A DNA stretch of 64,000 bases from an uncultured delta proteobacterium (GTDB lineage Bacteria > Myxococcota > Myxococcia > Myxococcales > Anaeromyxobacteraceae). Positions 32,101 through 38,100 of the stretch are shown piece by piece. The DNA lies in contig CAWHDZ010000017.1 of NCBI GenBank assembly GCA_963828255.1, forward strand, positions 32,001 through 96,000. The letters run 5' to 3'. Each line of letters begins with the position of its first letter. The first letter of the stretch is position 1. Made by a program: the position numbers.

Positions 32101-35100
32101 GGTCCCGAGCCCCGCCGGGTGGAGTGACGTGTAGAAGCAGGTGTGGTCGCGGGCGGTCATGGCGTTCATGCTCCCGCCCGCCGCCTCGACCGCCGCGTTC
32201 ATGGCGCGGCTGTCCGGGTAGCCGCGGCTGCCGCGGAACAGCAGGTGCTCCACGAAGTGGCTCACTCCGTTCGCCTCGGGCTCCTCGTGGCGAGACCCCA
32301 CCCGGACGTAGAGCGCCAGCATGGCCGAGTGGAGGCCGGGCGTACGCGCCACCACCACCCGGGCGCCGTTGGCGAACCGGGCGCGCTGCCCCATTGGAAA
32401 TGGGCCCTCCGCCATGGGAGAGCGGCCCCTCAGGGGATCCCGGAACCGCCGCGATCTCGGCTTCGTCGGCTTCACGCTGTCACCGTCTCCTCGCTGCCGG
32501 CGACGTCCGCTGGCGCAGGCGGGATGCATACCGAGAAAGTGGTTCCTCGGCTCACCTCGCTTTTGCATCGGATCGTCCCGCCGTGTTCCTTGACGACCTG
32601 CAAGGTGAACGCCAGGCCGAGACCGGTCCCTCCCGACTTCGTGGAAAAGAACGGTTCGAAGATTCTCTCCAGTTGTTCCGCGGGGATGCCCGATCCGGTG
32701 TCCGACACCGTCACCTCGGCGCCACCGTCCGCGGAACGGGCGGTCCGGACGGCGACCGTCCCCCCGCCGGGCATGGCCTCCCGGCTGTTGCGGAGCAGGT
32801 TCAGGAACACCGCCCGCAGCTGCCCCTCGTCGGCCCAGACCGCCGGGAGTTCCGAGGAGAAGTCGCGCGTCACCACCACCCCGGCGGCGGCCATCTCCGG
32901 GGCCACGAAGTCCACGAGCCCCCGGAGGATCTCGTTCAGGTCCTCGCGCGCCATCACCGGACGGGGGAGCCGGGCGAAGCGCAGGTACTCCTCGGCGACC
33001 GCGTTCAGGCGGTCCACCTCGCGGGTGATGGCGCCGAGGAGCGCCCGGGCCTCGGTGGAAGCCCCCGGCTCGAGCTCCTCGGCGAGCAGCTCGGCGTTCA
33101 GCCCGAGGGAGTTCAGCGGGTTGCGGATCTCGTGGGTGATGTGGGCCGAGATCCGCCCCACCGCGGCCAGCCGCTCGGCCCGGAGCAGTTCCTGCCGCTG
33201 CCGGTCCAGCGAGGCTGCCATGGCGTTGAACTCACGGGCCAGGACGCCGAGCTCGTCGCTCCCCCGGACCTCGACCTGCCGGGTGAGGTCGCCGGAGGCC
33301 ACCACCTTGACCCCCTCCGTGAGTGTCCGGATGGGGGCGAGGAGCCGCTGCGAGATGAGCGCCGCCCCGATGCCCACGAAGAGGGCCAGCAGCGCGTAGA
33401 TGACGATGGAGAGAGCCGTTCGCGACTCCTCCCGGCCGGCTGCGAGGACGAGCTCGCTCGTGTGGCTCTCCAGCGCGGCCTGGAGCAGCTTCACGTCGAG
33501 GGCGAGCGCCTTCTCCATGGTCCGGGCGGTCTGGATGGCCGCCTCCGGCGGCGCCTCCCCGGCCTCGGCCGCGTCGAGGAGCGCGCGGGCAGCGGCGTCA
33601 TAGCGGGACCAGGAGGCGTCGAGGGAGTCGAGCCGCCCCACCACCTCGGCGAGGAAGGCGCCCTCGTCGCCGGAGGCCACACCCCTGGCCCGGCCGGCCA
33701 CCGCGCGCCCCTCGGCGATCTTCTCCCGCACCAGCGAGGGGAAGCGGGCGCGGGCCAGCGGGACGAGCGCGCGGCGGGAGGCCGGGTCGAGCACGCCGGC
33801 CTCCAGGACACGCGTGGCAACCCAGTCCTTCACGTCGATCTGGGCGGCGATCCGGGTGAGGGGCAGGTACCCCTCCGACAGGAGCCTGAGCTTCCGGCCC
33901 AGGTCGTGGAGCCGGGAGATCCCGAAAGCCGAGACCAGGGCGAAGGCGAGGAGCGACACCCCGAAGGCGAGGAAGATCTTGGTGGCGACGCTGCGCAAGG
34001 CGGGAATGTAACCCGTCGCCGGTCCGCCTTGCCAAGAGGTCGGCCCCGGCGATAGCTTCGTCCCCCCATGACCGGCATCCTCCTCTTCATCTCCCTCGCC
34101 GCCGTCCTCGCGGCCGTCTACTTCTTCGCCTCCCACCGGACCTCGAGCGGCCAGCTGGCCAGCAAGGAGGAGGCGCTCCGCAAGCTCGAGGAGCAGGCGG
34201 CCAGCGCCACGAAGGAGGCCGCCGCCCTCCGGATCGAGGCGAGGGAGCGGCGCGACGAGGCCGCCCAGTTCCGCGATCAGCTGAAGGAGGCCAAGAAGAA
34301 GGCCTTCGACCAGGCCGAGTCGGTGAAGAAGGCCGCCGGCGCGCCGGCGCTGCGCGAGGAGATCGAGAAGCTCTCGACGAGGCTCGCCGACGCGCGGGCC
34401 GAGGCCTCCGCCGCGGCGGAGCGGGCCCGCGCCCTCGAGGCCCAGGCGGCCAGCGCGGCCCGGGAGCTGGAGCGCGGACGCGCCGAGGCTGCTGCAGCGG
34501 TCGAGAAGGCCCGGGCCCAGGCCCTGCAGGCGGCCCAGGCCGCAGCCGAGCCGCTGTCGGCGCCCCCGCCTCCGGCCGGCCCCGACGAGGCGCAGCTGCG
34601 GGCCGACAAGGACCGGGCCGACAAGGCCGAGGCGAAGCTCGTCGAGGTCCGCAAGAAGGCGGCCGAGATGGAGCGCGACCTCAAGGCCGCCAAGGGACGG
34701 CTCGAGACCGACAAGCGCGTCTACATGGTGCAGAAGGGCGAGCTCGACATCGCCAAGGACCGCTACCTGGAACTGAAGCGGCGCCACGACGCGCTCCGCA
34801 AGGAGCACGAGGAGCTCATCGACGCCGTCCGCCAGGCCGCCCGCGAGGAGCGGAAGGCCCAGGAGGCCGCGGGCGCTCTGGCCTCCGTCCCGGCTGCGGC
34901 CACGCCGCCCGCCGCGCCGCCCGTCGTGCCGCCCCCCGCGCCGGCGGAGGCGCTCCCGGCGTCCCCGCCCGCGGGCGAGTAGGGACAGGGGAAGCCCTTC
35001 GCCCCATGCAGAAGGCGGAGCGACTCCTCGACCTGGCGGCCCTCCTGCTGCGCGCCTCGGAGCCGGTCTCCTGGCGCGAGATCCAGGAGCAGTTCCCCGA

Positions 35101-38100
35101 GGACTACGGCGGCAGCGGCGAGGCGGCCATCCGCAAGTTCGAGCGGGACAAGGCCGAGTTGCTCGAGCTGGGGATCCCCGTCCGCTGGCTGGGCGGCGAC
35201 GAGGACCTCCCGGCCGGCTACCTGGTGGACAAGGAGGACTTCTACCTCCCCGACCTCAAGCTGCCCCCCGAGGACCTGGCGCTCCTCTACCTGGCCGGCT
35301 CGGCGGCGCTGGCGCAGCGCGCCTTCCCCTACGCGCGCGACCTGGCCCACGCCATGAACAAGCTCTCCTTCGCGGCGCGCGCACCGGGCGCCTCGGAGGT
35401 CGCGGCGGTGGCCTCGCTCCAGCTCTCTGCCGACGATGCGGACCAGGCCTCCCGGGCCGAGTCCTCGGCGCGGCTCGAGGCCCTCTCCATCGCGGTGGCC
35501 GGAAAGAAGCGGGTGCACCTGGTCTACGCCGGCGCCGAGCGGCAGGCCCGCACCGAGCGTGACGTGGAGCCCTACGGCCTCTACCAGCGGGGCGGCGCCT
35601 GGTTCGTGACCGGGTTCTGCACGCTGCGCCAGGACATCCGCAGCTTCCACCTGGGGCGGATCGTTTCGCTCACGGTGAACCCTGCAGCGCCGCGGACCCC
35701 CGACTTCGAGCCCCGCGAGGGCTTCTCGCTGGCCGAGCTCGCCACCCGCGAGTCCTGGGAGTTCGGCGTCCACGCCCCGGTGCGCTGCCGGGTGCGGCTC
35801 GACGGCCCGGCCAGCCCCGAGGAGCGCGACTCCTTCGGGCCGCGGGCCACCTGGAAGGAGTCGGACGGGCGGTCCGTGGCCGAGGTGATGGCCACCAACC
35901 AGGAGGCCTTCCTGCGCCACGTGCTCTCCCTGGGCGACCGGGCCGAGATCCTGGCGCCCCGTCCGCTGCGCGAGCGGGCCCGCAAGGTGCTGGCGTCGCT
36001 GGCCCGGAGGGTCTCGTGACCCGCAAGGCCGCACCGGTCAAGGCCGACGCCCGGGACCGGCTGCGCCGGGTGCTCTTCCTCGTCCCCTACGCGGTCCGCC
36101 ACCCGGGCGTTCCGGTGCGGGAACTGGCCCGCAAGTGCGGGGTCCCTGAGAAGCAGATCCTCGAGGACCTCGACTTCCTGCTCGGGGTGGGCTGCCCCCC
36201 GTTCGCGCCCGACGACTTCCTCGACCTCTACGTGGAGGGGGACCGGGTCCACGTGGCCCTCCACCAGAGCTTCTCCCGCCCGCCGAGATTCACCGAGAGT
36301 GAAGCAGCGGCGCTGGCCGCGGCGGCCCGCGCGCTGGGCGGGGAGGGGACGGAGCGGGTGGTGCGCGCCCTGCGCGAGGCGGTCCCGCGCGACCGGCGCG
36401 CCATCTTCGAGGAGCTGCTCGCCTGCATCTTCGCCGGGTCGCCTCCGGCCAGGGACTCGCTCCTCGGCCGCATCGAGCAGGCCATCGCCGCCCGCCGGGC
36501 CCTGCGCATCCGCTACTTCACCGCCACACGCGGCGAGGAGAGCGAGCGGGTGGTGCACCCGTACACGCTCGCCCAGCGGCTCGGCCACTGGTACCTGTGG
36601 GGGCACGACGAGGGGCGCGGCAAGGCGCTCCCCTTCCGGCTCGACCGCATCCGCGAGTGCGCCGTGGACGAGAAGCGCTTCGAGCCGCCCACCGACGCCG
36701 AGCTGGCGCGGGGCCGCCTCTTCTCGGAGGCCAGCGGCCCCCCGGTCCGGCTGCGGCTCGGACCGGTCGCCGCGGCCTGGGCGCTGGCCCGGCCCGGGCA
36801 GTGGCGGGTGGTGAAGCGCGACCGGAAGGGCGGGGCCGAGGTCGAGGTCCCCGGCGTGAGCGACGAGTGGGCCACGCGCTTCGCCCTGTCGTTCGGAGGT
36901 GACGCCGAGGTGCTGGGCCCCCCGCCGGCCCGGCGCCACTTCGGCGACGCGGTCCGGCGCGCCCTGGCCCGGTATCCGTGAAGGTCCCGGTCGGGGGGTA
37001 ATCGCCCCGATGGGTGGCCTTCCGGGCCAAACGGGTGACCCCAGGGTGCGCGCGGACCCGCTCAAGCAGGGCGAAATCCCTGTGCTTTATATCGGCACGG
37101 GCCAAGCACTCGCTCAGGGGTGAGGTGCCCGTGGCGCGAGTCCTGATCGTCGATGACGTGGAGATCGTTCGGAGGGCCCTGGTGGTCGGGGTCCAGAAGC
37201 TCGGTCACGAGGCCGAGGGCGCCTCGGACCCGCTGGTCGCCCTGGAACTCGCGCGCCTGCATCCACCCGATCTCGCGCTCGTGGACTACCGGATGCCGGG
37301 GATGGACGGGATCGCCTTCTTCGACGCGATGAAGCACCAGCTGGGCGACAGGTGCCCCAAGGTGCTCTTCGTCTCGGCGACGCCCCTCGACGAGGTCCGG
37401 GAGAAGCTCGTCCCCACGGGGCTCGTGGCGGCCGGCTTCGTGCGCAAGCCCTTCCACCTGGAAGACCTGTGGAAGACCGTGAAGGACGCGCTGGCGAACT
37501 GAGGCGCTACTTCTTCGGAAGCCCCGCCCAGCCGAAGTAGAGATCGGCGACCGCGCACATGTCGTTCGTTCCGTGGCCGGCCTCGATGGCGTCGGCGAAG
37601 AGGCTGCGCACCGCGGCGCTCACCGGCATCTTCGCGCCCTGGTCCGAGGCCGCCTCCTGCGCCAGACGCTGGTCCTTCTCGGCGAGTGCGATGGCGAAGC
37701 GGGGCGTCCAGTCGCGGGCCAGGATCTGCTCCCCCTTCATCAGGAAGAACGGGGAGTGGAAGCTGGAGGCCTGCAGCGTCTCGACCACCTTGGCGACGTC
37801 GAGGCCACCGGAGGCGCCCAGCGCCAGCCCCTCGGCGTAGGCCGCCATCATGGCGCCCCCCACCGAGTTCACCACGAGCTTCATGAGGGCGGCGTCCCGG
37901 GCGTTGTCGAGCTCGATCACCCGCGCCGAGATGGCGCGCAGCGCCGGACGGGCCTTCTCGCGGGCCTCGGCGGGGCCGCCGGCGACGATGGTGAGCTGGG
38001 CCTTCTCGGCGGCGGTCCTGGAGCCGAGCAGGGGAGCCGCGATGAAGGAGGCGCCGCGGGAGCGCACGCGCTCCTCGACCGACTTCGCGCTGCGCACGCC

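Follow-up and report, generated by a model that had tools for sequence, protein, structure and literature searches.

Ahead of DNA-repair and replication genes in pafB-bearing genomes, the hexamer YGTCRG stands 10 nt before a sigma70-type −10 element; this −10 is often extended (TGn), and a −35 box is missing. The 64,000-nt window that we analyzed, from an uncultured member of the Myxococcales, carries the pafB–pafC pair (Table 1) whose products are predicted to act there. Judging from the sequences and by analogy with Mycobacterium, a PafB–PafC heterodimer is likely to switch on a DNA-damage regulon in the Myxococcales as well as in several other Myxococcota lineages via the mycobacterial mechanism. 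Sequence comparison supports both the orthology to PafBC and a conserved promoter of the PafBC type ahead of repair genes, and does so more strongly than in the first-pass annotation of this genome: the motif co-occurs with pafB throughout the phylum, a negative-control gene is without it, T at −7 and TG at −15/−14 recur in columns not used for selection, and a published start site lies in register. That annotation is largely confirmed, but its finding is less new than it had claimed, and its interpretation is partly supported.

Table 1 Features of the window, with positions counted from its first nucleotide
Feature	Position	Strand	Description
Sigma70 promoter candidate TTGCCA-N18-TAGCTT	34029..34058	+	Read from sequence; possibly serves the coiled-coil gene, pafB and pafC
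Membrane-anchored coiled-coil gene	34068..34982	+	Ends 23 nt 5′ of pafB
pafB	35006..36019	+	337 aa; wHTH-WYL-WCX subunit, predicted reader of the GTC element
PafB recognition helix E39-A40-R43-R47-K49	35120..35152	+	M. smegmatis E42, A43, R46, R50 and K52 by alignment
PafB His215	35648..35650	+	At the position of M. smegmatis R211 (ssDNA binding)
pafC	36016..36981	+	321 aa; subunit predicted to touch sigma region 4
PafC Asp70	36223..36225	+	M. smegmatis D62 (sigma contact) by alignment

The pair consists of two adjacent paralogous wHTH-WYL-WCX genes, PafB-like first and PafC-like second, whose reading frames overlap by 4 nt. A Pfam search found WYL and WCX domains in both proteins and HTH_PafC at 102 bits in PafC, and an NCBIfam search returned no family for either. 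Against the PDB, PafB matched 6sj9_A (E = 8e-22) and 7p5x_AY (E = 3e-14, with 5e-5 for the PafC counterpart), and PafC matched 7p5x_AX (E = 6e-26). These domains and matches, with the kept DNA-reading arginines and the sigma-contacting Asp of PafC, bear out the earlier identification of the WYL pair as a PafBC orthologue. With the PafC HTH as query, the homologues listed were all close relatives, which has no bearing on origin; atlas neighbors of the pair are mostly Actinomycetota clusters, a lead and no test of transfer. The coiled-coil gene, which recurs as a neighbor of pafB only in a genome of the same genus, is probably in one transcript with pafB. No PafBC element was found before pafB of the window, and no LexA half-site (GTTCAG, CTGAAC) between positions 33700 and 35005.

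The earlier observation that the recognition helix EAAIRKFERDK keeps the E/A/R/R spacing holds, the helix aligning with EAFSRMFERDK of PafB chain 7p5x_AY; in M. smegmatis, as described in passages of PMC8635444, this helix reads GTC and D62 of PafC contacts sigma. Both PafB arginines (R46 and R50 equivalents) are kept in the 36 clear main-type pairs among 41 genomes of the order, as well as in genomes G009 and G035, and five of the six PafB backbone contacts are kept, R56 being replaced by Leu. The D62 equivalent is kept in main-type orthologues and lost from the second pair of this genome. Among the ssDNA-binding residues of PafB, Y196 is Phe and R211 is His, the latter position being occupied by H, Q, R, A, V or L across orthologues; the double change R211A/R214A in M. 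smegmatis PafB abolishes ssDNA binding. Region 4 of the sigma70 of this genome reads RMRFG and RIRQIEAK. Presumably these correspond to the SigA segments with R416, R442 and S446, in which case the arginines are apparently kept and the serine bonded by D62 is apparently Ala. A complex prediction for the PafB HTH, the PafC HTH and sigma70 region 4, made with no alignments, scored 0.00 with an uncertain partner fold and is evidence neither way. From the conserved residues and the promoter geometry we infer sigma adaptation in myxobacteria.

Sites of the form YGTCRG-N10-TA stand in place before recA, ssb, recJ, imuA and dnaB, as had been listed, but those at recN and radA, which had been assigned to the same form, read CA. 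By our own gene calls, the TA form lies within 120 nt of 18 genes rather than the 22 given before, and nine of them rather than 11 serve repair, replication or dNTP supply (alkZ-like, PolB-type exonuclease, dnaB, uvrD, class II nrd, imuA, recJ, recA and ssb); a further one is a DNA methylase, and half of the 18 are non-repair genes. The TA form is commonest at spacer 10 (19 genes vs. 3–8 at other spacers), and we agree with the first-pass annotation that bulk enrichment of the motif is weak. A scoring matrix trained solely on the recN and ssb sites of other genomes placed 10 genes at or above the cut-off of 15 bits (recN counted twice, on duplicated contigs), compared with 0–1 genes with shifted spacers and 0–3 with 12 hexamer shuffles. 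These controls replaced a sense/antisense comparison that carried no information, probably owing to the upstream DNA that divergent genes have in common. We considered whether a site-bearing 69-aa XRE gene (C15:38612-38821) might be DdiA and rejected this, no DdiA match being found in this genome at E = 1e-12.

The claim that a −35 box is missing agrees with the occurrence of TTGACA within two mismatches at 11 of 90 sites (7.3 expected). Among the columns outside the selection, T was found at −7 in 49 of these sites and TG at −15/−14 in 47. At recN, 13 of the 22 listed sites begin 28–31 nt 5′ of the coding match, so that +1 falls on the start codon. The mycobacterial element is described as spanning −28 to −23, and that of M. 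xanthus ddiA starts at −29 from the published +1, a single start site compared in a strain that differs from the published one. Three 2026 RNA runs mapped to the ssb promoter of M. xanthus show the sense depth increasing from ~60–90 to >300 past the predicted +1, with read-through and no pile-up of starts. The supplements of PMC8844925 yielded no genome-wide start sites for M. xanthus.

Conservation at recN and ssb across the order, previously claimed from another sample, was recovered in an independently drawn one (recN: 20/29; ssb: 22/30; other spacer lengths: 0–3). YGTCRG-N10-YA lies upstream of radA in 14 of 18 cases in the order and of sbcD in 6 of 6, the control genes rpsB (0/29) and uvrC (0/10) are without the motif, and at least one of recN, ssb and radA is preceded by a strict site in 26 of 30 order genomes. 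Consistent with the assertion that genomes without pafB lack the motif, the two order genomes with no detected pair (G003 and G023) have zero sites at these three genes. Outside the order, 13 of the 14 genomes with pafB carry the motif at ssb or recA (9/14 at each gene) vs. none of the 14 in which pafB was not found (0/14 at each gene), and both genomes with a weak pafB hit possess a site. Since the genomes are kin, this contrast reflects few independent events.

Kinship alone could yield such lineage-level co-occurrence, and the element, although real, might be read by another factor, for example by the second WYL pair, by an alternative sigma factor, or by an unrelated activator with the lineage range of pafBC. 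Genome G039 (92% complete, 1670 contigs) has sites with only second-type pairs (KxWTRDK) found, but in most PafB-like proteins of the second type the R46 position is occupied by Lys, the second PafC of this genome is without D62, and the M. xanthus record carries sites with pafBC as its sole WYL pair. In G009 and G035, which possess the pair, none of the genes tested has a strict site. The two order genomes in which no pair was found are without the motif although other members of their families have it, and the −10 is a sigma70-type element. We regard another reader as improbable.

In M. xanthus, pafB and pafC are MXAN_RS06580/06585 (MXAN_1359/1360; passages of PMC9705874 and PMC12288472). 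The strain AM003 pair, located behind the published LexA box, and the window pair share 40% identity. The damage response had been called unidentified in the first-pass annotation, which is only partly so: passages of PMC9705874 had already named pafBC, reported weak LexA binding upstream of it and a PafBC-binding sequence in 24 of 51 indirectly LexA-regulated genes, and proposed PafBC as a relay below LexA; in its readable text neither a motif nor a list of genes is given, and promoter geometry, a test across species and a mutant are likewise missing. In PMC12288472 (2025), the homology of the pair to PafBC is mentioned and the pair set aside, and the induction of ddiA and the regulators raising DinB, ImuB and RecX are stated as unknown. 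A literature search returned no binding, knockout or in vitro PafBC data for any myxobacterium.

The element at the M. xanthus ddiA, dinB, recX and sbcD promoters is new here, and at ddiA it was found in 6/6 orthologues and 0/24 paralogues. Among published mitomycin-induced class L units, the TA form occurs in 5 of the 16 tested vs. 1 of 213 background genes; the strict site is missing from 10 of the 16 (lhr, recA1, the ruv operon, recQ, uvrA, uvrC, a yprA-like helicase, dnaE2, recJ and imuA), recJ and imuA having near-matches only. Site-bearing ssb, ligA, ATP-dependent ligase, nth, radA and smc are all in the UV-induced table of PMC9705874. Raw motif counts in M. xanthus were not enriched relative to a reversed control (6 vs. 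6, 29 vs. 32, 33 vs. 34).

The response had also been described as LexA-independent, which is partly right. Weak LexA binding at the pafBC box argues against it, as do LexA-type half-sites at recA, imuA and recN of the present genome and the published M. xanthus lexA mutant, in which PafB and PafC are both up (pafBC by 3.4 log2) and recN and recJ also increase. These increases would fit a reading in which PafBC binds the element but is triggered by something other than free ssDNA at PafB, the output depending chiefly on PafBC abundance (through derepression from LexA) or on a different ligand, with the housekeeping expression of ssb, dnaB and ligA contributing a part; RNA reads from runs of unknown condition cover ssb well, and PafB R211 is not kept. 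However, dinB, recX and sbcCD are mitomycin-induced with no significant rise on LexA loss, ddiA is up by ~3 log2 with mitomycin vs. 1.05 in the lexA mutant, and a LexA half-site precedes pafB in 0/8 genomes of the window's family. Furthermore, the equivalents of PafB R181, R204, R208 and R214 and both PafC arginines are kept, and DdaA functions with Ala at the R211 position. We give this reading little probability. Least probable of all, the sites could be inherited, activator-free promoters, either ordinary extended −10 promoters, given the TG in about half of them and the weak bulk enrichment, or a reversed −35 box (CTGACA), given the resemblance of reversed TGTCAG to TTGACA, but the spacing is fixed at 10, the motif is missing at rpsB, uvrC and ddiA paralogues and where pafB was not found, and the reversed −35 was rejected because none of the 90 sites has an opposite-strand −10 at 16–18 nt.

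We favor activation by a PafB–PafC heterodimer. By analogy with M. smegmatis, ssDNA would be bound by the WYL domains, GTC near −26 would be read by the PafB helix, and sigma region 4 would be held by PafC, so that the housekeeping holoenzyme fires the promoters. In M. xanthus, pafBC would likely be repressed by LexA, the likely PafBC targets would be recA2, recN, dinB, recX, sbcDC, radA, ssb, ligA, a second ligase, nth and ddiA, and dnaE2, which is without the element, may be driven by DdiA in turn. There is a reasonable likelihood that PafBC is the missing inducer of M. xanthus ddiA, dinB, recX and sbcCD in three tiers (LexA represses pafBC, PafBC activates ddiA, DdiA activates dnaE2), and that sigma adaptation, so far known only on actinobacterial SigA, then also operates with a sigma70 of proteobacterial type in much of Myxococcota, where the ssDNA pocket is changed and the Pup-proteasome missing. 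If so, the induction of several Myxococcus repair genes lacking an identified regulator would be explained by a mycobacterial-type two-protein sensor and its promoter signal, sigma adaptation would extend from Actinobacteria to a Gram-negative phylum, and the motif could be used to predict the damage regulons of uncultured Myxococcota. The element at ddiA, dinB and recX and a two-gene candidate make the question of the inducer tractable in a model organism.

Actinobacterial PafBC works by sigma adaptation at tGTCgg-N10-tA-N3-T promoters (passages of PMC8635444 and PMC11804915). The myxobacterial system resembles it in the adjacency of pafB and pafC, the domains, the DNA-reading residues of PafB and D62 of PafC, in the hexamer, spacing and missing −35, in its repair-gene targets, and in the overlap with LexA at recA. 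It differs from that of M. smegmatis in belonging to another phylum, in that R211 is not kept, in Ala at the apparent S446 of sigma70, and in the frequent TG-extended −10; moreover, mycobacterial PafBC levels are described as unchanged, whereas M. xanthus pafBC is damage-induced and likely LexA-repressed. Linkage to pafA, part of the context of mycobacterial PafBC and not of the activator, is not seen here, the Pup ligase gene (PF03136) being found in 0/16 genomes in a search that included a positive control. DriD of Caulobacter and DdaA of Moraxellaceae are likewise WYL activators of LexA-parallel damage responses in Gram-negatives, but they are homodimers on palindromes (CGAC-N7-GTCG and CGWCA-N5-TGWCG, respectively) and work without PafBC-type sigma adaptation, whereas the window pair has two distinct subunits, a predicted heterodimer, and a single nonpalindromic element at −26.

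The two WYL genes in the window, whose ORFs overlap by four bases, were proposed in the first-pass annotation to be an orthologue of PafBC, and domains, structure matches and kept contact residues bear this out. Against solved structures, the first ORF matched PafB (7p5x_AY, E = 3e-14) ahead of PafC (5e-5), and the second matched PafC (E = 6e-26) ahead of PafB (2.5e-6); source labels on close relatives read Anaeromyxobacteraceae or 'proteasome accessory factor C'. With residue roles for DNA reading and sigma contact taken from excerpts of PMC8635444 (M. smegmatis numbering), the base-reading E42, A43, R46 and R50 align with E39, A40, R43 and R47 of the window PafB, five of six PafB backbone contacts are kept, and the sigma-contacting D62 of PafC is D70. 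Among the PafB residues that bind ssDNA (excerpts of PMC11804915), R181, R204, R208 and R214 are kept, Y196 is Phe and R211 is His; the R211 position varies among PafB orthologues, and the Ala found there in DdaA is a precedent for His. The sigma70 of this genome has an apparent Ala where SigA has S446. One other WYL pair is present in this genome; its helix has Lys for R46 and its second subunit lacks D62, and similar second pairs are patchy among relatives in the order.

Coordinates of the pafBC pair, second-type pairs and selected genes behind the element (L and C numbers denote loci and contigs)
Feature	Position	Basis or remark
pafB ORF	35006-36019	WYL + WCX domains, structure match
pafC ORF	36016-36981	WYL + WCX domains + PafC HTH, structure match
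Second PafB/PafC-like pairs	C27:40585-42536 (L033) and L145-L153	helix mostly KxWTRDK or KFSRDK, without R46
Two paralogous ~220-aa proteins without Pfam family, M. xanthus	L063:784-1464 and L069:1585-2241	clean element upstream of each; candidate uncharacterised damage-response genes
209-aa protein without Pfam family, then IstB/DnaC-like ATPase	L278:308-1832 and L283:788-1405	element in M. xanthus, one-base variant in this genome; possibly a helicase-loader unit
TacA-like antitoxin gene + partner; 85-aa no-family protein; thyX and 69-aa XRE regulator; phage-type integrase (variant)	L277:606-1294; L280:188-445; L279:61-879 and 2313-2522; L282:215-1330	further sites upstream, this genome

The proposed PafBC-type promoter, YGTCRG-N10-YA, was then considered in this genome. 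Five of the sites cited previously match as written, but recN reads CA rather than TA, as does radA; the TA form within 120 nt precedes 18 genes by our own gene calls, not 22, and nine of the 18 (not 11 of 22) are repair, replication or dNTP genes. The pattern count is highest at spacer 10, a modest peak. For a non-circular test, recN and ssb sites of other genomes, 41 in all, were made into a matrix to which neither this genome nor M. xanthus contributed. Its top ten matches here are recA, uvrD, dnaB, ssb, a TacA-like antitoxin gene, imuA, class II nrd, an exonuclease and recN, the last counted twice because of duplicated contigs; 10 genes score at least 15 bits, and the controls gave 0-1 when the spacer was changed and 0-3 over 12 shuffles of the hexamer. 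Weaker matches precede mutL, radA and recJ, and another lies before a two-gene unit whose last gene encodes an IstB/DnaC-like ATPase; the M. xanthus counterpart of this unit has a site too. A near-match of 15 bits, GGTCAG-N10-TATCTA, lies 46 nt before the replicative dnaE (L380; C25:33404), and none was seen in two other dnaE loci checked. Stretches duplicated between contigs (C7/C33, C34/C35, C2/C3, C17/C18) carry recN, rpoD and others twice, so that sites may be double-counted, and are consistent with a contamination figure of 6.6%. At window positions 29900-30330, several frames of long hexanucleotide repeat tracts translate as SDSD, ESES, GVGV or GSGS runs, giving rise to spurious ORFs.

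Across the order, PafB was matched in 40 of 41 genomes (none in G023, and only a weak single-gene match in G003). The motif was sought within 200 nt in 30 genomes (28 of the 40 relatives, this genome and M. xanthus), and its reported conservation at ssb and recN was reproduced (22/30 and 20/29, respectively; 0-3 at other spacers). The element also precedes radA (14/18) and sbcD (6/6), and is absent from the control genes rpsB (0/29) and uvrC (0/10). Of the 30 genomes, 26 have a site at one or more of recN, ssb and radA. The claim that genomes without pafB lack the motif holds for G003 and G023, where no pair was found, but G009 and G035 also have no site despite a divergent pair with both arginines kept, which speaks against a strict rule. 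Genome G039, a fragmented assembly, has sites, and only second-type pairs were found in it.

The PafB HTH was matched in 34 of 71 genomes of the phylum, and entire families gave no match (f13, 0/11; f17, 0/7; also f15 and f23). From 59 genomes outside the order we chose 30, comprising 14 with a clear PafB match, 14 with none and two weak. A site occurs at ssb in 9/14 genomes with pafB vs. 0/14 without, at the best-scoring recA likewise in 9/14 vs. 0/14, and at either gene in 13/14 vs. 0/14, a contrast for which Fisher's value is overstated because the genomes are kin. Both weak-match genomes have the site. A Pup ligase was looked for in 16 genomes and found in none.

The element appears to behave like a promoter. 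Among 90 collected sites, T at -7 (49/90) and TG at -15/-14 (47/90) are frequent in columns not selected on; a -35 box is not enriched (11/90 within two mismatches vs. 7.3 in shifted windows), and no site (0/90) has an opposite-strand -10 at -35 spacing. In 13 of the 22 recN sites listed, the first base is 28-31 nt upstream of the coding match, the distance that leaderless transcripts would give. Sequence comparison demonstrates the identity of the two subunits, the retention of contact residues, the element with its spacing and classes of target, and its co-occurrence with pafB; by analogy with M. smegmatis, ssDNA would activate the PafB-PafC heterodimer, PafB would read GTC near -26, and PafC would bridge to sigma region 4. 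RbpA is not known outside Actinobacteria.

The M. xanthus locus was placed in the AM003 record via a probe printed in PMC9705874; the pair is 40% identical to that of the window and is the sole WYL pair of the record. Blind pattern scans of this record gave no bulk excess of the motif. Genes behind matches include recN, recA2, dinB, ligA, an ATP-dependent ligase, nth and ssb, with more distant matches at smc (337 nt) and a topoisomerase A subunit (223 nt), and the UV-induced table of PMC9705874 has genes with these names. A high-scoring near-match, AGTCAG-N10-TACGTT, lies 86 nt upstream of rpoN (sigma54; L431:16085-17602).

One match is upstream of a 119-aa XRE gene adjoining a coiled-coil/HEAT gene, which by size and neighborhood fits ddiA (published as 120 codons, adjoining pomXYZ). 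If the published start codon is taken as +94, the first base of the element falls at -29, with TAATCT as the -10. All six ddiA orthologues have the element, at 119-122 nt, against 0/24 paralogous XRE genes. We tested 16 of the 17 transcription units behind class L proteins (Table 1 of PMC12288472), assigning genes by family search rather than locus tag. The TA form occurs at sbcD1, recA2, dinB, recN and recX, and the CA form at priA, 221 nt upstream; recJ and imuA have near-matches, and no element was found at lhr, recA1, the ruv operon, recQ, uvrA, uvrC, the yprA-like helicase or dnaE2. Among background genes, the TA form occurs in 1/213 and the YA form in 6/213. The result for dnaE2 is consistent with its published dependence on DdiA. 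In PMC12288472, ddiA rises by 1.05 log2 in the lexA mutant, under that paper's cut-off, and by ~3 log2 with mitomycin, as would be expected if extra PafBC helps slightly and the damage signal supplies the remainder.

LexA-type half-sites (lexA is at C11:34547) stand beside the element at recA, imuA and recN of this genome, with none at pafBC; M. xanthus lhr also has one. Upstream of pafB, M. xanthus and six of the seven f6-family genomes have a half-site, and 0/8 of the window's family do, so that LexA control of pafBC looks lineage-specific (loci L011, L012, L013, L015, L020, L021, L035). In family f3 (L016, L017, L024, L030), pafBC is immediately 3′ of what we take to be the ribosome recycling factor gene, near rpsB.

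The PafBC system itself is already known, being placed in Actinobacteria by PMC6789036, PMC7617703, PMC13004042 and PMC12392091. The first-pass annotation saw in it the unidentified LexA-independent damage response of myxobacteria; the defined element and the sites at ddiA, dinB and recX appear to be new, but the name pafBC and a passing claim for M. xanthus pre-exist. PMC9705874 names pafB and pafC in M. xanthus, shows that LexA binds weakly at their box, and reports a PafBC-binding sequence in 24 of 51 genes, which its Fig. S3 may list. PMC12288472 notes the homology to PafBC, excludes the pair on the ground that its level is under LexA control, and describes the induction of ddiA, and what regulates DinB, ImuB and RecX, as unknown. 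Titles and abstract openings, mostly outside subscription journals, yielded no defined motif, ddiA link or pafBC mutant in myxobacteria. Judged from genome comparison, a conserved PafBC system with its promoter class in Myxococcota is real, and what it adds to the actinobacterial system and the M. xanthus reports is a defined element, its match with pafB throughout the phylum, and for ddiA, dinB and recX a specific, cheaply testable answer.
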